Source: a bacterium
GTDB taxonomy: Bacteria > Bacillota_I > Bacilli_A > RFN20 > CAG-826
Length of the DNA: 64,000 bases
Assembly: GCA_963651445.1 (NCBI GenBank)
Contig: CAVJPU010000002.1
Location: 97,489 to 161,488, forward strand
Direction of reading: 5' to 3'
The position numbers were made by a program, and so were the translations under genes. This document shows positions 11,128 through 58,931 of the stretch, in pieces (the first letter of the stretch is position 1; every line of letters begins with the position of its first letter). The notes under the pieces were generated by a model that saw only the letters and a program-made list of their open reading frames with translations, did no database searches and was not told the DNA's origin.

Positions 11128-12850
11128 GTTACAACGTATTCCGGCAACGTTGAGACGTCAGGCGCCAACTCAACCGGCCGCCAATGATAGTCAAGATGTG
11201 CCGCAAAATACAAAGGTTTCACAAATGGTAGAAGCTCTAGAAAAAACTAGAACTTCTCCACCGCCTGTGCCTAAAGATGACCCAAAGACATTTGATATTC
11301 CTTTGAATGGTGCAAATGATGCCGAAATAGGTAATCAAGAAACATTAATACAACAAGGCGAAGCTGCTAACGATAGTGCATTTGCAACAGCGACTAACAC
11401 CAAAGAAATTTCTTCTAAATTGACAACATTGTCTAATCAATTAAAAGAGAAATACACAGCGGCAAATGATTCTACAATAGAAAAACCTGATGTTGCAAAA
11501 GATACAACATCGGAAATTTTACAAAAACGTAAAATGGGCGAAGTAGAAACACCTAAATCAGCTGCAGTTGAAGTGGTTAAACAAGAACCAAAACCTTCTG
11601 AAGGATTGTTAGATCAGCCGAACCAAGTTAAAGGCGCCCCATCAGGAACTAATCCAGTGATTACTGCAGTCGATGCGGTAACAACTGCTGTTAAAACTGG
11701 CTTTGGCAAAATCACCGGCTTCGCAGATAAAATATCTTCATTTTTATTCAAAACTTCTATAACAGAAGCTGCTAAAGGCGCCATGATTGCAGCAGCAATA
11801 CTAGGTATTATTATTGCTCTTGATGTTCTTCAAGCGTTATGGCAAAAGTATGGCGACTTGATTTTAGCAAAAATCGAAGACTTAAAAACCGTTTTAGTTC
11901 AATGGTGGACCGAATTAAAAGATTGGGCCGCTTCATGGGTAGATATGAAAAACTCATTTGATATAATGGAAGGGTCATTAGATGAAATGAAGAAAATGTG
12001 GAAAGAAGGCAATTTAGCCGGATTGGCCGGTGCAGTGGGTAGAAGTCTCAAAGACGGAATCATGGCATTAGACGGTGTTTTTAGTAGATCTGTTGCAAAA
12101 TTGTTATCAACTGTCCTTGGTGCACTTGGCTTCAAAGATATGGCTAAGCGCATTGAAGCTTCTGGGCTACAAGATTGGTCAAATGGTACTAAAGGATCTA
12201 TGTCAAAAGATAATCAAACCAAATTAGCTAAGCAGCAAATTGAAGATGAAAAAGGAAGTGGTCGGACACCTACATCTTGGAAAACTAAATCATGGCTTCC
12301 TGATAAAGCAAATTACGAAATGGGATATATTTCCAAAGACGAATATGGTCAAATTGAAGCAGAAAAGAAAGATAAAGCACAACGCCAAGCTTTGCCTTAT
12401 GACCAACAAGTTCAAGTTGTTGCTGCAGGTAATGAAGCAAGAAATGCAATCGATAGATATAAAACTATTACTGCCCGTTTAGATCCAAAAGATCCGGCAT
12501 CGGCTAAGCGTATAAATGACTTAAAGCAAGAAGCGGTTACCGCAGTCAATAACCCTGCTCTTGATAATGCACCTAATGTTAAAGCAGAGCTTCAAAATCA
12601 AATAAATAATGTAGGAAAACAGGCTAGTGTGAGTCCAGAGACATCTGGTTCTAGTTTAGACACAATAAAAGCAAAAGCAATCAAAGCCGTAGATGCCGTT
12701 AAAGGTGCTGCTGCCACAGCTGGAGCGATTTTGACTACACCTGCTGCCATAACAACTAATATTATCAAAAACAGCAGAAGTGTAAATGTCCAAACTCCTG
12801 TTACAAATACTAGAGCACCTGGTGTGTATAAAGCAACTGGTGTAAATTAA
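11120..12850 (+). CDS. 29: Baseplate hub subunit / tail length determinator gp29
   Basis: About 576 aa (T4 590), low-complexity N-terminal half, hydrophobic central segment. Position is 28-29-48. ATG 11120 has GGAG 7 nt upstream. Confidence 0.8.
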   Translation: MDKLQRIPATLRRQAPTQPAANDSQDVPQNTKVSQMVEALEKTRTSPPPVPKDDPKTFDIPLNGANDAEIGNQETLIQQGEAANDSAFATATNTKEISSKLTTLSNQLKEKYTAANDSTIEKPDVAKDTTSEILQKRKMGEVETPKSAAVEVVKQEPKPSEGLLDQPNQVKGAPSGTNPVITAVDAVTTAVKTGFGKITGFADKISSFLFKTSITEAAKGAMIAAAILGIIIALDVLQALWQKYGDLILAKIEDLKTVLVQWWTELKDWAASWVDMKNSFDIMEGSLDEMKKMWKEGNLAGLAGAVGRSLKDGIMALDGVFSRSVAKLLSTVLGALGFKDMAKRIEASGLQDWSNGTKGSMSKDNQTKLAKQQIEDEKGSGRTPTSWKTKSWLPDKANYEMGYISKDEYGQIEAEKKDKAQRQALPYDQQVQVVAAGNEARNAIDRYKTITARLDPKDPASAKRINDLKQEAVTAVNNPALDNAPNVKAELQNQINNVGKQASVSPETSGSSLDTIKAKAIKAVDAVKGAAATAGAILTTPAAITTNIIKNSRSVNVQTPVTNTRAPGVYKATGVN

Positions 12851-49571: not shown

Positions 49572-51725
49572 TTAAGGTAGTTTAATGCCATTTTTAATAT
49601 CAGAAAGCATAGGTTCTTCCAATGTACGGATACGGTATAAAACGAAATTTGCCATAGGATTTGTTGTTTCAAATTCTCGCAATCGTTCACCATGAAGATT
49701 CGTAGCTTCTAGGCGTTTACCGTCATATTTTTGTATAGTTTTTACTAATGTATGGTCACCTGGTAGCCCGGATACAATAGCTATCGTATCTATCAACGAA
49801 CTCAACATTCGTTCTTTTGGCGTCCATCCAAGATTTAGATATTCTTTTAATTTAGTAAATTCTTCATGAGCTAAAATATTTTTAACAAATACTTCGTCGT
49901 ATTCGACTTTAAACGTGTCAATAGAATTTACTAAATCTTCAATTATTTGAGAAAACTTTTCAAAAGCACATTTAACATTTTTGTTTTTAACAATTCGGTT
50001 AAATGTTGTCTTTTTGACTTGGTGGATTGGCTCTTTAGTGTACTTTGACAACACAGAAGAGATAGTAGAAAATTGAATATTAAAAACATTAGAAAAACCT
50101 AATGATGGGACCATATTAATGCCCGAGTTTACACCCATTACATAACCGGTCAATTCGGCTATCTCATCGGTAGAGCAACGTCGGCTTTGAGAAATATACA
50201 TATTTCTATTAGCATCCCAGGTATGCGTAATTACATTAGGAGTCGACGGTCTTGCACTATTACGTGCAACCTTCACTTTAATATAACCTGGTACAAGTTT
50301 TCGAATATCTTCCATTTCTGATGTCTTATACACCACTACTTCATCGCCTGCCATTACAGCTTGAATTTCTGGCAAAGCATCATCGATAACCGTTTCTGAT
50401 ACAACTGTAACAAGTGTACGTTCTTGCCATAACCCACTATGTACTAGCCCTTTCATAGAATAATGAAGCTTAGATTGATTATCTAAATCATTGATAATCA
50501 CAATAGCCTTTTTAACATTATACCCAAATAAGCTAATTAATTCTACTTGTGATGCTTTCGTATAGGAATACCGAGATGCCGTTACAACCGTTTTTAATCT
50601 GTTGGCACTCTCACCAATTTGATATACGCGACAGCCAAATCCTCTATAATATGGCTCTATGTGCTGCAGATTTAAGGTTTTGTTAATTTGACTTAACGTT
50701 TTGCCGTTAAATTCTACATTAGACCGTTCGAGAATATGATATTGATTAGAATGCATCGAATGGATTTTTCGAAGAAGTTCACGAATATTAGTAATAGATT
50801 TTAGATGTTTGATATCATCCGTCATCATTTTGTTGTTAACACTATTAACTCGATCACAAATATTTTTAATAGTGAATTCATCCATTTGGAGTTCTTCACG
50901 GCTAGGCTGTGGCAAAAGAGTTCCTAACGGAAAATGGAACATTAATGCATTATGCTTACCTCTGAGCCATTCGGCCTTTAATCCCGGAGTTCCATCAAGT
51001 GGATATACAATATTTCCATAGATGGCAAAGATGCCGTTCTTATAATGTGAATTAGAAGATGCACTATACCAGTCCGTAGAATAATTTGGGTCATCTGCCA
51101 ATGAACCTACTGCTGTCGAAAGATTCTTTAATTCGTATTTAGATTTATCAAATGGCAACAGCATTGTAGAAATTTCTTGCTGCCATTTAGCGACATCTGT
51201 TTCTTTTACCGGTACAGTAACTTCAATACCACTGCGGTCGCCGTCTTCAAACGGCCCACTGTATATTTTGACCAATGACGGTTGGCCATTAGCTACCATA
51301 GCATTATAAATTGTACATTGGCCTTCATAGTATGACGCAACTGTAAATGTGTCTGTATAAGCAAATGGCGATTTAGCGCCTAAGCCAAAAGCTCCGGTCT
51401 GTTCATTACAGTCAGCTTTAGTAGACTCGAAATAACGAGTGTACACTTCTGTCATATCTTCGTGAGAAAGCCCGGGACCAAAATCTCTAACAATAAACTG
51501 TAAATTTAATACTGTCGGTGACGTGATGATAAACTTTTCAGAAGTTTTTCCAAAAATATGAGCATCATTAGCATTACAAATAACTTCTCGCACAATAGCA
51601 CGGATTTTGTGTTTATAGATACCGCTAGATAAAATTTGAAACGCTTTAGCTGATGCAGAAATCGTAAATGATTTTGATTCGCCGGTATTTCCAAGAATAA
51701 CTTCATTCTCAATATGCATTTTCAT
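49572..51725 (-). CDS. rIIA: rIIA protector from prophage-induced early lysis (GHKL ATPase-like N-terminus)
   Basis: 717 aa (T4 725). N-terminal IRAIVREVICNANDAH Bergerat-fold motif and GAFGLGAKSPF. Confidence 0.9.
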   Translation of the reverse strand: MKMHIENEVILGNTGESKSFTISASAKAFQILSSGIYKHKIRAIVREVICNANDAHIFGKTSEKFIITSPTVLNLQFIVRDFGPGLSHEDMTEVYTRYFESTKADCNEQTGAFGLGAKSPFAYTDTFTVASYYEGQCTIYNAMVANGQPSLVKIYSGPFEDGDRSGIEVTVPVKETDVAKWQQEISTMLLPFDKSKYELKNLSTAVGSLADDPNYSTDWYSASSNSHYKNGIFAIYGNIVYPLDGTPGLKAEWLRGKHNALMFHFPLGTLLPQPSREELQMDEFTIKNICDRVNSVNNKMMTDDIKHLKSITNIRELLRKIHSMHSNQYHILERSNVEFNGKTLSQINKTLNLQHIEPYYRGFGCRVYQIGESANRLKTVVTASRYSYTKASQVELISLFGYNVKKAIVIINDLDNQSKLHYSMKGLVHSGLWQERTLVTVVSETVIDDALPEIQAVMAGDEVVVYKTSEMEDIRKLVPGYIKVKVARNSARPSTPNVITHTWDANRNMYISQSRRCSTDEIAELTGYVMGVNSGINMVPSLGFSNVFNIQFSTISSVLSKYTKEPIHQVKKTTFNRIVKNKNVKCAFEKFSQIIEDLVNSIDTFKVEYDEVFVKNILAHEEFTKLKEYLNLGWTPKERMLSSLIDTIAIVSGLPGDHTLVKTIQKYDGKRLEATNLHGERLREFETTNPMANFVLYRIRTLEEPMLSDIKNGIKLP

Positions 51726-51787
51726 GATTGTACACCTTCTTTACTAATAATATCTATTGCTGTATAAACACCAGTTTCACAAATCAT
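51722..51787 (-). CDS. 21-codon upstream ORF (MICETGVYTAIDIISKEGVQS) coupled to rIIA
   Basis: Strong SD GAGGA 7 nt before its ATG. Its stop overlaps the rIIA ATG (tcATGa). Not in the ORF track. Confidence 0.35.
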   Translation of the reverse strand: MICETGVYTAIDIISKEGVQS

Positions 51788-51826
51788 TTTAATTTCCTCA
51801 AGTCATTGTTCATTTGGTATGTGATT

Positions 51827-51854
51827 ATTATACCACGCCTTTTGCGGATGTAAA
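51827..51854 (-). promoter_or_regulatory. Early promoter TTTACA-N16-(TGg)TATAAT before rIIA
   Basis: -35 at 51849-51854 and -10 at 51827-51832 with a TG extension. Confidence 0.65.
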
Positions 51855-51857
51855 TAA

Positions 51858-52220
51858 TTAATTTACACTATTTTGGGCTTTGATACGCTTCTTTAAAATC
51901 TTTCTGATAGCCTTTGCGTGTTCAATCCAAATTTTGCCTTTAATAAACTGCCCGTTATATGTACCAAATAACTCAATGACGGTCGATCCTAATCCATTGC
52001 CATGGTCTTCAGAGGCTTTAATTTTAAATAACTCGTAAAACGTGTTAGACCATAAAATACTGTTAGGCATTCTGTGTCGAGTATAACTAATGTATTGTCC
52101 TAGAACATCATATTTGTATAATTGCATATCAAATATATGGTCCAACATATCTTGGTCTTTGATAAAGTTAATAATAGTTTTTAACGATTTTCTAATTAGA
52201 ATCATATCCGATGTAGTCAT
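51858..52220 (-). CDS. Hypothetical protein, tandem paralogue 2
   Basis: Start at ATG 52220 (GGAGGA upstream, ATGA overlap with the previous stop). Shares (K/R)K(T/S)(I/L)K.II..IK..DML.H.F.M and ...G...KG..WI..AK..RK.LK with the 52217-52585 product. Confidence 0.55.
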   Translation of the reverse strand: MTTSDMILIRKSLKTIINFIKDQDMLDHIFDMQLYKYDVLGQYISYTRHRMPNSILWSNTFYELFKIKASEDHGNGLGSTVIELFGTYNGQFIKGKIWIEHAKAIRKILKKRIKAQNSVN

Positions 52221-52585
52221 TTCAATTCCTCCAAATACTCTTTTAACAGTTTTCTGACAATTTTTGCACGTTTGATCCAAAGCGATCCTTTTACTGTGCC
52301 ACCGTCAACAGTACTAAACAAGATTTCTACAACTCGTTTATATTTCTCATTACTTAAATCTTCTTCCAATAACATACTTCTAAACCCAAAGTATTCTTCT
52401 GTATACTCTTTACAATTGAATCCGTTTACCGAAGATGATTTAGTGTCACGTATATACTTCCCGAACACACAGGCGGTATAAGAAAACATATTGAACTCAT
52501 GATTTAGCATATCATATTCTTTAATATGTTTGATAATATCCTTTATCGTTTTTCTAGATAATTTTATACTTGACTTAGCTGACAT
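52217..52585 (-). CDS. Hypothetical protein, tandem paralogue 1
   Basis: 122-aa ORF; see paralogue 2. Confidence 0.55.
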   Translation of the reverse strand: MSAKSSIKLSRKTIKDIIKHIKEYDMLNHEFNMFSYTACVFGKYIRDTKSSSVNGFNCKEYTEEYFGFRSMLLEEDLSNEKYKRVVEILFSTVDGGTVKGSLWIKRAKIVRKLLKEYLEELK

Positions 52586-52662
52586 GTTAATTTACTCGTT
52601 GTATTCGATGATTCATTATACTATCGGACAATTTAAATGTACATCATTATTTTAAATAAAAA

Positions 52663-52791
52663 CTAAAAAAGGACCCGTAGGTCCTTTTTAAATTTGTCTT
52701 TTCGTTTGTATTGTGTTTTATCTTCAACAACTTGAAGTTTGAATGCCGGAGTTCTAACGGCTTTTGCAACAGGATTACGTTTACCTTTCAT
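52663..52791 (-). CDS. ArfA-like (alternative ribosome-rescue factor A) mini-protein, putative
   Basis: 42 codons, MKGKRNPVAKAVRTPAFKLQVVEDKTQYKRKDKFKKDLRVLF. Own promoter and SD. The terminator hairpin lies inside the last 7 codons. Resembles the ArfA core ...NA[IV]xAL[LV]xxPxF[RK]x[RQ]VExxKKGKGSYxRKxK. Not in the ORF track. Confidence 0.45.
   Translation of the reverse strand: MKGKRNPVAKAVRTPAFKLQVVEDKTQYKRKDKFKKDLRVLF
52666..52689. terminator. Bidirectional intrinsic terminator AAAAAGGACC-cgta-GGTCCTTTTT
   Basis: 10-bp stem with flanking A/T runs. On the minus strand the U-run coincides with the last codons and stop of the ArfA-like ORF. Confidence 0.75.
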
Positions 52792-52826
52792 ATAATTTCC
52801 TTAAACAGTAATTGAAGTGATGAAGC

Positions 52827-52855
52827 TATTATATAATAACTTCATCACCATGTAA
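52827..52855 (-). promoter_or_regulatory. Early promoter TTTACA-N17-TATAAT for the ArfA-like ORF
   Basis: -35 at 52850-52855 and -10 at 52827-52832. The -10 sits in the loop of a 9-bp inverted repeat GTGATGAAG/CTTCATCAC (52816-52847). Confidence 0.65.
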
Positions 52856-52860
52856 ATATT

Positions 52861-53877
52861 TTATGAAATAACTTCTAACCATTTAGTGCGAATTTCTGCT
52901 TGGACCAATTTCTGCAATTCTGCTTTAAACTTACTAGGTTGTTGGGCATTATTGAGTACAATACCTTCACGTTCGGCTTCAACAAAAATATCTCGCATAG
53001 TAAGCCCAAGAACTTTGCCGAAGTCCTTTGAAGTCACTTCACCAATATGAGAAATAACATTTGATACTCGGTTCCATGTAACAAATTCGTTGAATTGCTC
53101 TAAAAGAGCTAAATCTTCTGGAGGAAGAGGTGTAGGAATTTTTGGAAGCTTACCTTTACTCTTTTCTTTAAATGCATCGGTTTTGTATTTAATAGCTAAA
53201 CGGCTTCCACCATGTAAGAACATCGGTTGATTTGGTTTAATAACTAAACCTTCTGCCGGGTTGCCTGCAGACGGAAGTTGTTTATGTTCAAAGTACATAT
53301 TTTGCCAAGTCAAAGTAGGCACTACAGATTCGAATTCCACAGGAAGTTTTAATAACTGTGTCAAAGGGCCTCGAGCAATTAATGGAGCGATTTTTAATCC
53401 ATAACGAGAACAAAATGTTTGTACATCACTATCAGGCCACCAGCCATGAGAAATCCCAGCGGATTCGCAGTCAAAGTAAACATCAAATACGTATAATGAT
53501 TTAATGTCGCCATAATTAACTTCTTTTTGGATTCCTGGGCCGGCATATTCACCAAAGATCTGAAGTGATTTAAACTCTGGTAGATTTTCGTTTAAATCTT
53601 TTTGGACCTTTTTTAATACAAAATCAAGGTCAGCCATTAAATCTTCATAACCAAAGAATTTTTCTGCTGGTTTAATTTCACCAGATCGTTTTGCCGGAGT
53701 AATAGCGTCTTTTGTAATGATAATAGAAAAATTAGTACCGTGGATTTTTTCTCGTGCAACAAACTCTACGGCATCACTGATTTGCGGACCAACGTTAATG
53801 ATATGCTCAAAACATTTTTCAATAAATTTGGCGTTAGTGTGGTTTTCTAGGCTAGGGTATTTTTTGAAGTTAGACAT
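52861..53877 (-). CDS. rnlB: RNA ligase 2 (RnlB)
   Basis: FKKYPSLENHTNAKFIEK, VAREKIHGTNFSII (KxHGxN adenylation motif), FGEYAGPGIQK, RVSNVISHIGEV..KDFGKVLGLTMRDI are colinear with remembered T4 Rnl2. Confidence 0.93.
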   Translation of the reverse strand: MSNFKKYPSLENHTNAKFIEKCFEHIINVGPQISDAVEFVAREKIHGTNFSIIITKDAITPAKRSGEIKPAEKFFGYEDLMADLDFVLKKVQKDLNENLPEFKSLQIFGEYAGPGIQKEVNYGDIKSLYVFDVYFDCESAGISHGWWPDSDVQTFCSRYGLKIAPLIARGPLTQLLKLPVEFESVVPTLTWQNMYFEHKQLPSAGNPAEGLVIKPNQPMFLHGGSRLAIKYKTDAFKEKSKGKLPKIPTPLPPEDLALLEQFNEFVTWNRVSNVISHIGEVTSKDFGKVLGLTMRDIFVEAEREGIVLNNAQQPSKFKAELQKLVQAEIRTKWLEVIS

Positions 53878-53935
53878 GATGAATTTCCATTTTAGATAAA
53901 AAGGACTCGGTGCAGGTTATGCACCGGATATTAAT

Positions 53936-54133
53936 TTACTTAATACAAATAATATTTCTAATAATTAAAATATCACCGTACTTTTTAGGTTTAAAGCTTT
54001 CCGAAGTTTTAAGTTCATTGACTAGATTAATATATTGTGTTTCGTCGATAAGATCGATTTTAACATGTTGTTGACTAGTTGAAATATGACCAGAAGCTAA
54101 ATTTGTTGCTACAACTTCAATAATAATATTCAT
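53936..54133 (-). CDS. Hypothetical small protein
   Basis: 65 aa; AAGGAG 6 nt before the ATG, directly after the gene 60 stop. Confidence 0.55.
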   Translation of the reverse strand: MNIIIEVVATNLASGHISTSQQHVKIDLIDETQYINLVNELKTSESFKPKKYGDILIIRNIICIK

Positions 54134-54143
54134 ATTTGGCTCC

Positions 54144-54662
54144 TTAAGCTGTCATCCAATCTTTACGTAATTGTGGATCGTTACCCATCAACATTTCGAA
54201 TTTATCTTTCCACAATTCTGGTAATTTGACTACATCAAAATGCGGATCATTAATAACTCGCTCATACTCATTCATTTCCAGACTTCCTAGCCCTTTGATA
54301 TATCGGGCACTCCAGCCTTTGAGATCATCTTTAACTTCTTCATATTCTTCTGAAGTATAGAACCATTTTTGATCTTTACCTTTCTGACAAATCCAAACCG
54401 GTGTTTTAACGAATTTAACTCGACCTTGCTCGAATAATTCTGGCCAATTTGAAAAGAATGCTAATAAAGATGGATAGATAGAACCTGTGCCTAAATTCTC
54501 TAATTAAATGATAGTAGGCTTTCGCCTACCATCTACGTCGGCGTCAGTCATAATAGCGATATTACGATAATTTGTAGAGCCGGTGAATACACGACGAACG
54601 TGTGTTTGAGCTGAGTATGTGTCCATATCGATATCAGTTTTTGCGATTGGAGTTAATTTCAT
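54144..54662 (-). CDS. 60: DNA topoisomerase II large subunit, C-terminal part (gp60-like), interrupted by an internal stop-containing gap (putative translational bypass)
   Basis: ATG 54662 (GAGGT upstream): MKLTPIAKTDIDMDTYSAQTHVRRVFTGSTNYRNIAIMTDADVDG. Then comes a 12-14 codon gap with TAA (54504-54506). The same frame then resumes (T)GSIYPSLLAFFSNWPELFEQGRVKFVKTP...GSLEMNEYERVI...MGNDPQLRKDWMTA*. Both halves are colinear with remembered T4 gp60 (46 + 114 aa; here 45 + 114). Confidence 0.8.
54489..54527 (-). other. Putative coding gap / bypass element (take-off GGU 54530-54528; landing GGC 54491-54489, or GGU 54485-54483)
   Basis: The gap is AGG CGA AAG CCU ACU AUC AUU UAA UUA GAG AAU UUA (GGC). 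A 10-bp stem GAUGGUAGGC/GCCUACUAUC (54533-54510) with a GAAA tetraloop includes the take-off codon. Confidence 0.6.
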
Positions 54663-55476
54663 TGTATACCTCATAAAAGTCATCGTCAGGGCACCAGCCC
54701 GATTTAAATTTAATAAAACATTTTCCAAATAATTTGGATTTGTTACTAATGTTATTATACCTCATCCATTTTGAAATACCCGTTGCTTTAGGACGGTCTT
54801 CATCGTAGTTGTTACAATACCAATCATATAGGCTAGGTATTAATAGAACAATTTGTTTAGAATGTTCCGAATTGTTTTTATAATACCAAGGTCGGGCCCT
54901 TTTGCGTTCTGCTGCTATTGCAGTTGCAGTCTCAAAATTACCAACGCCTTTAAGTCCGAGAGACTTGATTATAGGGTCATTACAGTCTAAAAAATATGTT
55001 TTACCAGTAGAATCTTTAAAGCATGTATGTCGCTTTTTTTATTGATCTTGGTATTTTCTTTGCATAGTTTACACCTTTCCATAAAGATGTATCCACTGTA
55101 TCAACTTTTAGAAGCTTGCAGTGTCCAGTGCTAACATTTCTAAACACTGTTTTGCCTGCCATAAATTCACTAGACCAATCGGAAACTATACTTGAATGTA
55201 TATTTCTTGCAATATCATATGTTCTAGAGCTAATAAACCCCATATGTTTAGAGTTTTCATTCTACCCAATGCAAAGGCCATTTGGCGGTTTTTGTGAATT
55301 TTATACAACAATATATGAGCAATAAAATGCTCTCTATACGTTAGTTTAACTAGATTAGATTTGTCATCCGATCCTCCCATAGAACGCGGCAAAATATGAT
55401 GCCATTCTCCACGTTCTACTTCTAATCGGCCCTGAGACCGTTTAATTAAGTTATTGTATACTACAGCATAATTCAT
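54634..55476 (-). pseudogene. mobA-like HNH homing endonuclease gene, disrupted into three reading frames
   Basis: Frame a (55476-55186) carries the HNH core EWHHILPRSMGGSDDKSNLVKLTYREHFIAH. Frame b is 55243-55016. Frame c (~55030-54634) starts after an A7 run (55034-55040) and ends overlapping the gene 60 start. Its ATG overlaps the stop of the gene 39 middle part (ATGA). Confidence 0.7.
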
Positions 55477-55910
55477 AATAGATCTTTAACTTTCTTCCAT
55501 TGCCCGTCAACTAAAATTTCGTCATTTTCGTTAACAATAGTCCCATCTTCCAGTGTAAAGAATTTACCTTCGCTAGAGTATTCACCGGCAGATCCACCAA
55601 TTGATAAGCCCATGATAGCGCAAATATCAAAAATCTCTTTATTTTTGAGCATATCAGCAGCACTCATACCCCAGGTATTCATTACTTTACCACGCAGCGG
55701 ATAACCACCATGGAGTTCACGATCACGTGTAGAAATCAAATAACCGATCGCACTATTATGAGAAACAGTACCATCAGCAAAACAAAAGCTTTCATCGTCT
55801 TCAACCTGGATGTCTACCATATTGTGATGCTGGCCAGTAGGTTCGTATTCGGTAATATCTTCAAGAATAAATGTAGCTTTGTCGATAAGATTAAAATTAG
55901 TAATATTCAT
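55473..55910 (-). CDS. 39: Split-intein C-fragment (52 aa) fused to the C-terminal 93 aa of gp39 (Toprim region)
   Basis: MNITNF...HHNMVDIQVEDDESFCFADGTVSHN|SAIGYLISTRDRELHGGYPLRGKVMNTWGMSAADMLKNKEIFDICAIMGL. Intein blocks F/G end in HN followed by Ser. The extein continues the GyrB-type EGD-SA.G...R...GYPLRGK motif. Own SD AGAGG. Confidence 0.85.
   Translation of the reverse strand: MNITNFNLIDKATFILEDITEYEPTGQHHNMVDIQVEDDESFCFADGTVSHNSAIGYLISTRDRELHGGYPLRGKVMNTWGMSAADMLKNKEIFDICAIMGLSIGGSAGEYSSEGKFFTLEDGTIVNENDEILVDGQWKKVKDLL
55755..55910 (-). other. IntC (C-terminal split-intein half)
   Basis: Blocks F (VDIQVEDDESFCFADG) and G (TVSHN/S). Confidence 0.8.
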
Positions 55911-57207
55911 TTGATACCTCTTTACCTTGTTTCAAATCATTTATGAATTTATTGACATTATACACCAATACACAATTGCGGAACTTAAGTGCTTTATATT
56001 CTACGTTGTTACAGTATTCCAAATTTTCGGCCTTTGAATTAAAACTGCACAACTCGATATAATATTCTTCACCGTGATACCGTATTTTGATGTCATAAAA
56101 TTTTCTTAACTTACCAGGGTATTTTTTATTGGTGTCTATAACAACCACATCTTCGATGGCCTTTAAAGATGTATACATATCCAATTCTAATGCCGATCTA
56201 AAGAAATGCCCATCAACTGATGATGAATAACTGTAAGAATTTTTAGCTACAAAATTTTTATATCTAATTCGGACTTCTTGAGGTATATCAAAATATTCGA
56301 ATAAATTTAATATTTTGAACGTGTGTTTAAATGCCACTACCCTAGAAACTTTTTTGTCGATTGCCGGATTCTTTGATATGTATGCATCTTCGGCCCTTTG
56401 TAATACTAGACAAAAGCCAATAATTGACATATTTTTACCAATTAAATCTAAACAGTAGCCCTTAAATTTATTTTCGTCATTGACAAATGATGCGTAATTT
56501 GATTGAATCCATGTCTCATTTATTTCGCCATTAACAAACTTCGGTTTAGGTTTAACTCTAGATTTTCTTTTACAAATCTCTTCTTTAGAAAATCTAGAAG
56601 GGTCAAAAATTGACCGTTGTGACCGTTGCAATTCGTTCCATTTGCCAATACCGTTTTTGGAAATAAATTTATTTTTATTTCTATAATATGATAGCTTCCA
56701 ATTAGCAGTTATCTCATTTTGACGACAAGCAGAACGCCCACTATGCGACTGGAATGTAGAATACGATGACACATCCTTATGATTTTTTCTATAAAACGGC
56801 GAGTTATTCCTGTCTAGTATCAATTTTGATGCGTCATCTTCGTTAAGATTATATGCAAATTTTACATACTCTACCGAGTTCGGATTTAATTTTTTAAGGA
56901 AACATCCAGGCTTCCCGCATGCAAAATATTTGCCATATGATTTGTCTCTGGCATGGGTAATATTAGTGCAATCAATTAATATCCCATTAGGAGTTTCTAC
57001 AAGTTCCATAGAATCTTTAAATCCTATGTAGTCCTGTAAATTGCCGCATGCGCATTTTCTAGAATGTTTGGCCTCAAACAACTCAATTAATTCCGGATAC
57101 CGTTTATAAATCATAGTAAACAAGTATTTCTTTAACCGTGGACCAGAATAATTTTTATCAGGTATGGACACCGAAGTGTCCATAAACTTAACGTTTAAAT
57201 GTTTCAT
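55897..57207 (-). CDS. Free-standing endonuclease-like ORF between the intein halves (putative homing endonuclease; Cys-rich N-terminus, PD-(D/E)xK- or Vsr-like C-terminus)
   Basis: 436 aa. ATG overlaps the IntN stop (gtATGA) and the 3' end overlaps the IntC start by 14 nt. N-terminal Cys motifs HSRKCACGN and FACGKPGC. C-terminal GHFFRSALELDMYTSL...FYDIKI...YYIELC gives an E...D...E-x-(K/C) layout. No LAGLIDADG, GIY-YIG or HNH motif seen. Confidence 0.5.
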   Translation of the reverse strand: MKHLNVKFMDTSVSIPDKNYSGPRLKKYLFTMIYKRYPELIELFEAKHSRKCACGNLQDYIGFKDSMELVETPNGILIDCTNITHARDKSYGKYFACGKPGCFLKKLNPNSVEYVKFAYNLNEDDASKLILDRNNSPFYRKNHKDVSSYSTFQSHSGRSACRQNEITANWKLSYYRNKNKFISKNGIGKWNELQRSQRSIFDPSRFSKEEICKRKSRVKPKPKFVNGEINETWIQSNYASFVNDENKFKGYCLDLIGKNMSIIGFCLVLQRAEDAYISKNPAIDKKVSRVVAFKHTFKILNLFEYFDIPQEVRIRYKNFVAKNSYSYSSSVDGHFFRSALELDMYTSLKAIEDVVVIDTNKKYPGKLRKFYDIKIRYHGEEYYIELCSFNSKAENLEYCNNVEYKALKFRNCVLVYNVNKFINDLKQGKEVSNEYY

Positions 57208-58931
57208 ACAATAATTACATCATTTAATGTAATATCTTTAAACTGTTTGAGTTTTAAACCATCGGTATCCATTACAATCATTTCATGAGTAGGACTTGAG
57301 TTAATTCTATGGGTTGTGCCTATAACAGATTTCACAACCATTGATGACTCCGTCAACTCAACAATTTGTCTAGATCTGTTAATAGGACCGCCTAATTCAA
57401 CTAATCGATTTTTTATGAGCTTATGACGGCCCTTTACTAACGAATCTACTCGAATATATTCTACTGTATCCAATACCGTATCATACGCATACAATTTATG
57501 CTCATTTGAATAAATCTTACCGTTAATCTTAATCCCTGGTTTAAGACGAATAGTTTTAGACACTACTTGTTTAAAGTTGTGTTTTGCGGTCATGACTGTA
57601 TCACCAACTTGGATATCTTTGGCCCGGATATTACCATCTAATGTAAAGATTTCGGTATTCTCATCAAAACAGTCACCTTCCGTAAGGAACAAAGTAGTTT
57701 CTAATTCAGAATTACCATATTTGTTTGCTTTGATGTGTTTAGATACTTTAGCTTTTTGAGCAGCTTTGTTGGCTTTAGTTTCGGCGGCTTTTTCGGCAGC
57801 AAGTTTACGAGCAAGTACAGCTTCAATGATTGGCATCAAAATTGATTCAGTATTCATAAATTGTTTGACAATTTTCTTAAAATCTAAATCAATGTGAGAT
57901 TTAATTTCTCCCCATGGCGATGTAAGCCGCTCTTTGGTTTGTGAGTCAAATCGAAGATTGGACATATCTTTTACGAATAATAAAAGTGTCACACATTCTT
58001 TAATTCTGGCTTTGTTTACATCGATTTTAAACTTACGTTTAATTAAAGGAATCAATTCGTTTGAAAGCTCGTCCATAACGTAATCAATATGAGAACCACC
58101 AACTTTAGTATGGATTGCATTTACATATGATAAATGCCTAAACCCATCTTCAGATGTCCCAATTGCTAATTGGACTTTATCACTTTCGTAGCATAAAGCA
58201 TTTTCGTCGTATTGCTTGGCATATTTTTTAAAGTTACCAATGATTCTGCTGCCGTTAAATTTAAACTGAATTTCTGGATAAACCACGGCTAGTGTTTGCA
58301 TTTGGTCTTCAATAATACTAACAATAACATCATCAATTGAATTGCATTCAAAATGACTAAAGTCAGGAATAAATTCTACTTTAGTTCCATGTTTACCACC
58401 GGCTTTAGATTTCCAGTCAATAGTGTCAATATTATTTGTACATTTTACTACAAGAGTATTAGTGCCGTCGCATGTGGTACCGATAAATGAAGTAGAAAAA
58501 ATATTTGTTAATGATGACCCTACACCATTCATACCTGATGTTTTTCGCTCAGAATCTTCACCGAAATTGCCGCCGGCTTTTGTCTTTGTCCATGCAGCCA
58601 CCGGACCGGGAATACTATCGCCTTCCGGGGTTGTAATCATTGCTTGCGGAATACCACGACCGTTATCTTCAACCGTGACAAGATTTTTTTCCGTATCGAT
58701 AGTTACAGAAATTTTATTCGCGAATTCGAAATTGGTTCTAACGGCTTCGTCAATGGAATTATCTCGAATTTCTTCAATTAATTTTACAATTGCTGGCACA
58801 TATTTTAATTTAACGTATTTGCCAAATTGGAACCGTTCATATTCTTCAGATGATGTACTACCAACGTACATCCCAGGACGCTTAATAACATGTTCTTTAT
58901 CACTAAGCATTTTAATTTCATTTTTAATCAA
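57204..58931 (-). CDS. 39: DNA topoisomerase II large subunit gp39, N-terminal 420 aa (GHKL ATPase + transducer), fused to split-intein N-fragment (155 aa)
   Basis: TTG start after GGAG: MIKNEIKMLSDKEHVIKRPGMYVGS, DEAVRTNF, VEDNGRGIP, GMNGVGSS, ...TLFLTEGD|CFDENTEIFTLDGNIRAKDIQVGD... The Toprim EGD is followed by Cys1 and Hint block A. A block B-like SSPTHEMIV lies near the end, then a stop. Confidence 0.88.
   Translation of the reverse strand: MIKNEIKMLSDKEHVIKRPGMYVGSTSSEEYERFQFGKYVKLKYVPAIVKLIEEIRDNSIDEAVRTNFEFANKISVTIDTEKNLVTVEDNGRGIPQAMITTPEGDSIPGPVAAWTKTKAGGNFGEDSERKTSGMNGVGSSLTNIFSTSFIGTTCDGTNTLVVKCTNNIDTIDWKSKAGGKHGTKVEFIPDFSHFECNSIDDVIVSIIEDQMQTLAVVYPEIQFKFNGSRIIGNFKKYAKQYDENALCYESDKVQLAIGTSEDGFRHLSYVNAIHTKVGGSHIDYVMDELSNELIPLIKRKFKIDVNKARIKECVTLLLFVKDMSNLRFDSQTKERLTSPWGEIKSHIDLDFKKIVKQFMNTESILMPIIEAVLARKLAAEKAAETKANKAAQKAKVSKHIKANKYGNSELETTLFLTEGDCFDENTEIFTLDGNIRAKDIQVGDTVMTAKHNFKQVVSKTIRLKPGIKINGKIYSNEHKLYAYDTVLDTVEYIRVDSLVKGRHKLIKNRLVELGGPINRSRQIVELTESSMVVKSVIGTTHRINSSPTHEMIVMDTDGLKLKQFKDITLNDVIIV
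57207..57671 (-). other. IntN (N-terminal split-intein half)
   Basis: Begins at Cys codon 57671-57669, immediately after the ...LTEGD extein residue. Ends at stop 57206-57204. Confidence 0.8.

Follow-up and report, generated by a model that had tools for sequence, protein, structure and literature searches.

What does a 42-codon open reading frame on the minus strand of a phage early region encode, and does the terminator hairpin inside its 3′ end leave its mRNA without a stop codon? The initial annotation of this locus had proposed an ArfA-like ribosome-rescue gene with a built-in non-stop mRNA. We analysed this mini-gene within its window, the whole 64-kb stretch of DNA under study, and identified the following features:

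52828..52856, minus strand: promoter-like TTTACA-N17-TATAAT of sigma-70/T4-early type, 11/12 matches, putative function
52798..52802, minus strand: Shine-Dalgarno AAGGA read from the sequence, spacing to the ATG of 6 nt
52663..52791, minus strand: DUF7230-type ORF, predicted divergent member of the ArfA family, 42 codons, ATG start, product MKGKRNPVAKAVRTPAFKLQVVEDKTQYKRKDKFKKDLRVLF
52684..52782, minus strand: conserved core, codons 4-36, KRNPVAKAVRTPAFKLQVVEDKTQYKRKDKFKK, aligning with E. coli ArfA ~12-47
52666..52689, minus strand: hairpin AAAAAGGACC-TACG-GGTCCTTTTT, codons 35-42, encoding K35-F42
52684-52680 and 52675-52671, minus strand: G+C core of the hairpin, from a pattern scan
52654..52670, minus strand: T-run TTTTTTAGTTTTTATTT in the sequence, including the stop TAG (52665-52663)
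52615..52643, minus strand: second promoter-like site TGTACA-N17-TATAAT, 10/12 matches, putatively for a downstream 122-aa ORF

The 42-codon ORF claimed at 52791-52663 was present and encoded the peptide exactly as quoted, and the claimed Shine-Dalgarno sequence was found upstream of its ATG. The promoter sequence also stood, with the highest score of all sites in the 6 kb scanned (50000-56000), and only its coordinates had to be shifted by one, to 52856..52828. A terminator hairpin and U-run had been claimed within the ORF end, and we found 10 pairs and a T-run there, covering the last eight codons. Folding of the hairpin gave -16.4 kcal/mol (z = -3.5 relative to shuffled sequences); G-C pairs made up only 5 of the 10, and the others were A-U pairs joining an A-run with a T-run. 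Directly 3′ of it came TAG (52665..52663), followed by TTTTTATTT. With its G+C-rich stem-loop and U-run, the element is a predicted intrinsic terminator, and the equivalent hairpin of phage AB-Navy1 carries a terminator annotation. Since a second promoter-like site follows, the mini-gene seems to be a self-contained one-gene transcription unit, whose early expression and transcript 3′ end are both predicted. No known RNA family in Rfam was matched at the locus; the only hit, MicX, is noise, its 17 bits falling far below the gathering score of 75.

The region of the window that holds the mini-gene is the rIIA/topoisomerase/dda early region of a T4-like phage. The upstream neighbour encodes a T4 Rnl2-type RNA ligase (PF09414 and PF18043), and two ORFs without assignment lie downstream, with rIIA next. 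Other genes in the window encode gp39-like and gp52-like topoisomerase subunits, Ndd, MotA, a lysozyme, a DexA-like exonuclease and Dda. Three RNA-repair neighbours had been claimed; the adjoining ligase agrees with rnlB, but neither pseT nor rnlA was found among the ORFs scanned from 43.4 to 63.7 kb. The neighbouring ligase suits an RNA-damage theme, as an association only. A near-identity DNA search of the locus against a phage collection returned no match, and the phage is therefore new at the DNA level. Its rIIA protein had at most 42% identity to that of any known phage, with Acinetobacter phages as the best matches. The phage is T4-like, belongs to the Straboviridae and is related to the Twarogvirinae, and its host is deduced only through these relatives.

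The initial annotation had made its reading depend on conservation of the ORF in related phages, and tblastn detected a homologous peptide in 69 Acinetobacter T4-like phage records. At the loci examined in Acj61, Ac42 and AB-Navy1, the homologue likewise lay upstream of rIIA and was annotated as hypothetical. The peptide was 83-93% identical to most Acinetobacter-phage homologues, while rIIA identity was 37-42%. Synonymous codon differences outnumbered non-synonymous ones against seven relatives (14:3 with Acj61, 18:5 with Ac42). This substitution pattern, together with the conservation, ruled out a chance ORF. These results demonstrate that the mini-gene is a real and strongly conserved coding gene.

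The peptide matched Pfam DUF7230 (PF23876) over residues 4-37 with 46.4 bits and E 4.4e-12, above the gathering cut-off of 27 bits, and phrog_2701 with E 1e-15; both families are annotated "unknown function". A DUF7230 profile search yielded 2,010 clusters at E<=1e-3, almost all metagenomic, and the name ArfA appeared on none of the best 120 of them. The family is mostly viral, with only 40 loci across 185,579 species genomes, nearly all of them in Thiobacillaceae, Hydrogenophilales or Gallionellaceae and in a conserved ispD-DUF7230-TPP-enzyme order. The tail of this betaproteobacterial branch is acidic, unlike that of ArfA. No conserved in-ORF hairpin of arfA style was found in 35 betaproteobacterial DUF7230 genes, whose best hairpins were scattered or fell within the conserved, G+C-rich part of the coding sequence; this result speaks neither for nor against ArfA-like regulation in that branch. 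No mention of DUF7230, biochemical or genetic, was found in the literature searched.

We assessed the relationship of the peptide to ArfA by direct and by profile-based comparison. The initial annotation had proposed a search with the Pfam ArfA model PF03889, but this model left the window peptide unmatched even at E<=10. An NCBIfam search with the peptide gave nothing, and E. coli ArfA reached DUF7230 at E 0.11 only. Against a home-made ArfA core HMM, the peptide scored a low 4.2 bits (E 0.0016, as a single comparison). Together with the short, Lys/Arg-rich character of the peptide, the low score and the missing Pfam match would suit convergence, in which a generic basic nucleic-acid-binding protein or an unrelated small early protein merely resembles ArfA and the hairpin is the plain terminator of a compact early unit. 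Profile-profile comparison argued otherwise. We reduced 149 diverse ArfA representatives to a 111-sequence core profile and built a DUF7230-type profile (A3) from 40 sequences, with KGKGS-containing members deliberately left out. Using hhalign, A3 aligned with the ArfA core at a probability of 93.8% (P 1.8e-7, score 32.2). Among 600 column-permuted controls the mean score was 7.9 (sd 1.9) and the maximum 16.6, so that 0/600 reached 32.2, and the reversed A3 profile scored 13.3. A phage-only DUF7230 alignment scored 25.4 against the ArfA core (P 1.2e-5), and its 600 column-permuted controls had a mean of 8.8 and a maximum of 18.4. These composition-preserving permutations never came near the observed scores. 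A less diverse DUF7230 profile (A1) had given a probability of 10-15% against ArfA prior to column restriction and profile diversification, and a PDB search with A1 returned no match up to E<=10. When A3 was searched against 177,635 PDB sequences, the six best matches were all ArfA chains (E 5e-4 to 1.6e-3), and the first non-ArfA match had E 0.19.

Intermediate sequences formed a continuum between DUF7230 and ArfA. A DUF7230-motif scan of viral contigs found 61 loci, among them L036 (...NPIAKEVRTPKFKLQVVKPKKGKGSFKRKKGL) and L066. Like peptides of CRP-212 and Cr30, L036 and L066 are bridging peptides in which a KGKGS[FY] tail follows a DUF7230 N-half, and all four exceeded the Pfam ArfA gathering score of 25.5 bits (CRP-212, 33.3; L066, 31.3; L036, 30.5; Cr30, 27.2 bits). 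BLASTP of the window peptide gave E 2e-10 against L036, with a single 3-residue gap exactly at KGK, and E 2e-6 against the unannotated bridging ORF of Caulobacter phage Cr30. In one pelagiphage-like orthologue pair (E 4e-20), one member has KKVYNRKK and the other KKGRGSFKRD. The annotated ArfAs of Brevundimonas phages and of pelagiphage HTVC027P carry an NP-x-A...TP-x-[FY] N-half as in DUF7230. Because the peptides of Roseobacter phages CRP-9 and CRP-212 are read in another frame within annotated large CDSs and may not be genuine genes, the main weight of the bridge falls on Cr30, L036, L066, Kikimora, Kabachok, HTVC027P and RXM. The register between the window peptide and ArfA was identical throughout all comparisons and equal to that of the alignment in the initial annotation. 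Convergence is therefore highly improbable, and homology of the DUF7230 peptide to ArfA is well supported by these sequence comparisons. The ArfA-like assignment thus survived by way of profile-profile scores, PDB matches, bridging sequences and its original register, but not through a direct match to PF03889.

We then mapped the peptide onto the structure of E. coli ArfA (YhdL, PF03889; 5MDV, 5U4I, 5H5U, 5MGP). Both proteins are small and basic, and they have in common the motif Asn...Pro-x-Phe-(Arg/Lys)-x-x-Val...Lys...Tyr-x-Arg-Lys-x-Lys with one 3-residue gap. N6, P15, F17, K18, V21, K25, Y28, R30, K31 and K33 of the window peptide aligned with N14, P23, F25, R26, V29, K33, Y39, R41, K42 and K44 of ArfA, respectively. 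In ArfA, His21-Glu30 occupy the A site, where Pro23 contacts A1492/A1493 by packing, and residues 31-48 fill the mRNA tunnel (PMC5378476). The window peptide retains the Asn, Pro-x-Phe, Val and Tyr-x-Arg-Lys-x-Lys elements as well as the basic tunnel tail, and P15 and F17 of the A-site motif are at least 90% conserved across the DUF7230 family. In the KGKGSY-x-RK-x-K motif, the 3-residue deletion removes KGKG, while Y28-x-R30-K31-x-K33 and the basic character are kept. The window peptide also lacks the first ~8 residues of ArfA, a segment that contacts h44 and S12, and it lacks the KGKG(S) turn. ArfA cut at Asn47 is still active, whereas ArfA cut after Met40 is inactive (PMC5378476). Residues 1-36 of the window peptide, which hold its conserved part, are the counterpart of minimal active ArfA (1-47), so that the DLRVLF encoded by the hairpin falls outside the functional core. 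These findings support membership of the peptide in the ArfA family well, as judged from sequence. ArfA has no autonomous fold.

The contacts with RF2 were less well kept. ArfA Leu19, Leu24 and Phe25 bind RF2 Trp319 (PMC5378476); the window peptide keeps only the Phe of this patch and has Ala11 and Ala16 in place of the two Leu residues. Position 16 is variable, with Lys in many viral DUF7230 members. ArfA Ala18, in the core of the N-terminal minidomain, is replaced by Lys10, which is nearly invariant (at least 90%) in the family, and the ArfA A18T substitution lets RF2 bind but abolishes its activation (PMC5378476). These changes would fit a mimic that does not rescue but fills the channel and the A site, blocking tmRNA-SmpB or sequestering RF2 for take-over or anti-defence: Lys10 stands at the A18T position, the peptide is shortened in the N-terminal segment that folds in concert with RF2 opening, and the hydrophobic patch has lost two of its three residues. 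Against this, the ArfA model accepts bridging phage proteins that have an NP[VI]AK N-half and in other respects look canonical, and an early block of ribosome recycling would also harm phage translation. To our knowledge, no inhibitor of this kind has been described. We consider such a mimic improbable and infer, by analogy, that the window peptide may activate RF2 in the manner of ArfA.

Taken together, the mini-gene is probably, though not assuredly, an early gene for a minimal, divergent ArfA-family alternative ribosome-rescue factor, its binding to the ribosome and recruitment of a release factor being predicted from ArfA. On a ribosome stalled where a truncated mRNA ends, the Lys/Arg-rich C-terminal half (D24...K36, with Y28-x-R30-K31-x-K33) would enter the vacant mRNA entry channel. 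The A site would be taken by the mid-region R13-T14-P15-x-F17-K18...V21-V22, which may recruit and activate a class-I release factor there, RF2 being the likeliest; hydrolysis of the peptidyl-tRNA by that factor would free the ribosome. Made early, when destruction of host mRNA would cause non-stop complexes to pile up, the factor could recycle ribosomes from degraded host mRNA or from mRNA cut by defence nucleases. The hairpin over the last eight codons would terminate the one-gene transcription unit.

Other phage proteins and rescue systems offer comparisons for this proposed factor. Phage-encoded ArfA is already known as an annotation in a few genomes and is mentioned for Citromicrobium phage RXM (PMC8953757) and for HTVC027P gp30 (PMC12753301); the Brevundimonas jumbo phages Kikimora and Kabachok also carry the annotation. 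These annotated proteins (RXM g10, HTVC027P gp30, Kikimora, Kabachok) are short like the window peptide (36-60 aa), have the N-half NP[VIAL]A...(R/A)TP.[FY](R/K).(R/Q)V in common with it, and belong to phages of a host class reportedly without arfA. They keep KG[KR]GS[YF] and pass PF03889, whereas the window peptide has a shortened K-T-Q-Y tail and falls into DUF7230. Expression of HTVC027P gp30 has been reported early and then again late (PMC12753301). We found no functional work on phage-encoded ArfA in the literature searched. Unlike E. coli arfA, the window gene is phage-encoded, and its rescue activity is presumed by analogy. BrfA of B. subtilis and ArfT of Francisella are also small and bring a class-I release factor to non-stop ribosomes, but they are non-homologous; ArfT uses RF1 or RF2, while RF2 would be the presumed partner of the DUF7230 peptide.

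The position of the hairpin bears on the second question. Compatibly with a rescue function, transcription could end within the ORF, the product could be SsrA-tagged and degraded, and the factor would accumulate only when trans-translation is saturated. Expression of this type is known for arfA and brfA, and the brfA mRNA ends at an intrinsic terminator located before its stop codon (PMC8012679). In the mini-gene, as in E. coli arfA, a hairpin lies inside the 3′ end of the ORF, here over codons 35-42 with the UAG within the U-run, and the DLRVLF tail falls outside the equivalent of minimal ArfA. In a survey of the window, the mini-gene alone had its stop 3′ of its own terminator hairpin; at ~10 other strong terminator-like hairpins, the preceding stop came 22-44 nt before the G+C core ended. 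In the annotated ArfA gene of phage RXM (g10), a strong 11-bp hairpin occupies the corresponding part of the ORF (codons 35-43), and a hydrophobic tail comes after it. The hairpin layout of the RXM gene is the canonical arfA arrangement. The window gene differs from arfA in having no hydrophobic C-terminal tail past the hairpin, the stop codon coming immediately.

We compared 12 Acinetobacter-phage loci. An in-ORF GGACC/GGTCC hairpin was present at five (the window, Acj61, AbTZA1, AB-Navy1 and L076), the stop preceded a separate terminator at six (Ac42, Acj9, 133, L074, L075 and L077), and one (L013) had no terminator. The loops of the GGACC/GGTCC hairpin differed among the relatives. In L076, a 6-nt loop shifts the frame of the 3′ arm, which encodes KWSF instead of RVLF; retention of the hairpin in a changed frame indicates selection on the RNA hairpin rather than on the peptide tail, in favour of gated expression. 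Phage 133 has an identical GGACC/GGTCC hairpin, but it is placed 3′ of the stop codon.

Intrinsic termination usually occurs ~7-9 nt past the stem. The TAG of the window occupies +6..+8 counted from the last G-C pair of the stem, whereas the stops of Acj61, AbTZA1, AB-Navy1 and L076 lie at +3..+6 from the G+C core, the difference being due to an extra TTT codon in the window. Because its stop falls in the expected termination zone, the 3′ ends of window transcripts may fall shortly before the UAG, inside it or past it, and many transcripts may hold it complete. The stop of the in-ORF relatives would normally be transcribed, and their transcripts would mostly include it; the T-run of Acj61 is poor. 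In all five in-ORF cases an in-frame stop directly follows the hairpin, in two different frames, which suggests that the stop is used. Elsewhere, ~50 viral family members, most of those examined, have no hairpin, and an ordinary stop codon closes most phage ArfA-like genes, which are "pre-truncated". The arrangement is missing in 7/12 loci and in most of the family, which indicates that non-stop expression is not a conserved requirement. The "built-in non-stop mRNA" of the initial annotation thus stands as to the placement of the stop 3′ of the hairpin, unique in the window, but has to be weakened as to its consequence, with the stop in the termination zone and seven of the 12 loci built differently. 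Transcripts of the mini-gene are probably a mixture with and without a complete UAG, and gating by tmRNA as in bacterial arfA is for this phage a possibility to which we give somewhat less than even credence.

The host context gives the proposed rescue factor a possible role. In 188 A. baumannii genomes, no ArfA, ArfB or RQC was found, and tmRNA was the only system (PMC8522692). A. baumannii is the best-studied host species of the relatives of this phage. Among the Alphaproteobacteria, arfA was present in 0/2,376 (PMC11633108); ArfA-like genes are present in phages of Caulobacter, Brevundimonas, Citromicrobium and Pelagibacter, and Agrobacterium phages have a DUF7230-type gene. On this basis we tentatively suggest, as a rather doubtful extension, that DUF7230 is a hidden minimal branch of ArfA that imports release-factor-dependent rescue into tmRNA-only hosts such as Acinetobacter and many Alphaproteobacteria, with a self-limiting, SsrA-tagged product added in the clade of this phage. 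If this extension holds, a ribosome closely behind RNA polymerase could suppress the hairpin, and the same 24 nt could couple ribosome availability to the 3′ end of the transcript and the fate of the rescue factor. The literature searched contained no earlier description of the proposed DUF7230-ArfA link, of the minimal architecture without KGKG or of its spread among Acinetobacter T4-like phages.

Should the peptide prove active, ~36 residues would suffice for ArfA-type rescue, with neither the KGKG turn nor the N-terminal segment, and this smaller functional core would be of use in studies of stop-codon-independent RF2 activation. The 2,010 clusters of a large, mostly viral "domain of unknown function" would be reassigned to a known pathway, and phages would routinely bring a rescue backup to hosts reportedly without one. 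Such a backup would be relevant to the trans-translation inhibitors under development as antibiotics for these hosts, and to therapeutic Acinetobacter phages of the Lazarusvirus group, which carry the DUF7230 gene.

We compared the 42-aa peptide encoded by the mini-gene (window 52663-52791) with its Acinetobacter phage homologues and found 83-93% identity with most of them, whereas the nearby rIIA protein (window 49572-51725) showed only 37-42%. This comparison of peptide and rIIA identities indicates that the mini-gene is under extreme constraint. With an A5 run at one side and T5+ at the other, the hairpin at window 52666-52689 gets a terminator score on either strand and has the shape of a bidirectional terminator.

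Between the mini-gene and rIIA lie two overlapping ORFs, each with a promoter-like site upstream:

window 52217-52585, minus strand, ORF of 122 aa
window 51858-52280, minus strand, ORF of 140 aa

Neither matched in a Pfam search. Their common motifs include K.IKDII.HIKEYDMLNHEFNM and KSLKTIINFIKDQDMLDHIFDM, and from these sequences the pair look like tandem paralogues. Relatives have rIIA.1-type genes at this position.

Elsewhere in the window, the topoisomerase gene carries a weak Hint_2 match (residues 421-458, E 3e-5), which may mark the junction of a split gene or what is left of an intein:

window 57204-58931, minus strand, gp39-like topoisomerase II subunit with GyrB/HATPase domains

Bacterial DUF7230 genes (L071/L072 4001-4174; L078-L114) were almost all found in Thiobacillaceae, Hydrogenophilales and Gallionellaceae, and those loci of Thiobacillus and Parasulfuritortus that were inspected share the conserved order ispD-DUF7230-TPP-enzyme. 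At the N-terminus their proteins are extended by an Arg-rich stretch (KRxSGPPRRPR); the tail is acidic and variable, and differs from that of ArfA. A search of these bacterial loci for a conserved in-ORF hairpin found none.

ArfA-like reading frames were also located in other phages:

L004 571-726, Roseobacter phage CRP-9, DUF7230/ArfA-like frame
L005 583-720, Roseobacter phage CRP-212, DUF7230/ArfA-like frame
L007 532-696 (KF301602 around 11142-11234), Caulobacter phage Cr30, unannotated ORF lying in an intergenic gap
L008 589-771, Citromicrobium phage RXM g10, annotated phage ArfA

Both Roseobacter phage frames lie within large annotated CDSs in a different frame; either the genes overlap or the large CDS is mis-annotated. 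The Cr30 product, ending in ...SKRNPIAKALRSSHLQPKIVKPRKGKGSFTRKGK*, scored 27.2 bits, above the Pfam ArfA threshold. An RNA ligase gene lies two genes downstream, an arrangement resembling that of the window mini-gene, which adjoins Rnl2. In RXM g10, an 11-bp in-ORF hairpin (AAGGGCAGGTC-GAAG-GGCCTGCCCTT, -21.7 kcal/mol, codons 35-43) lies directly 3' of GSYTRKGR and is followed by the hydrophobic tail LPFPYLAQVFVNL. This phage gene has the canonical non-stop layout of bacterial arfA.
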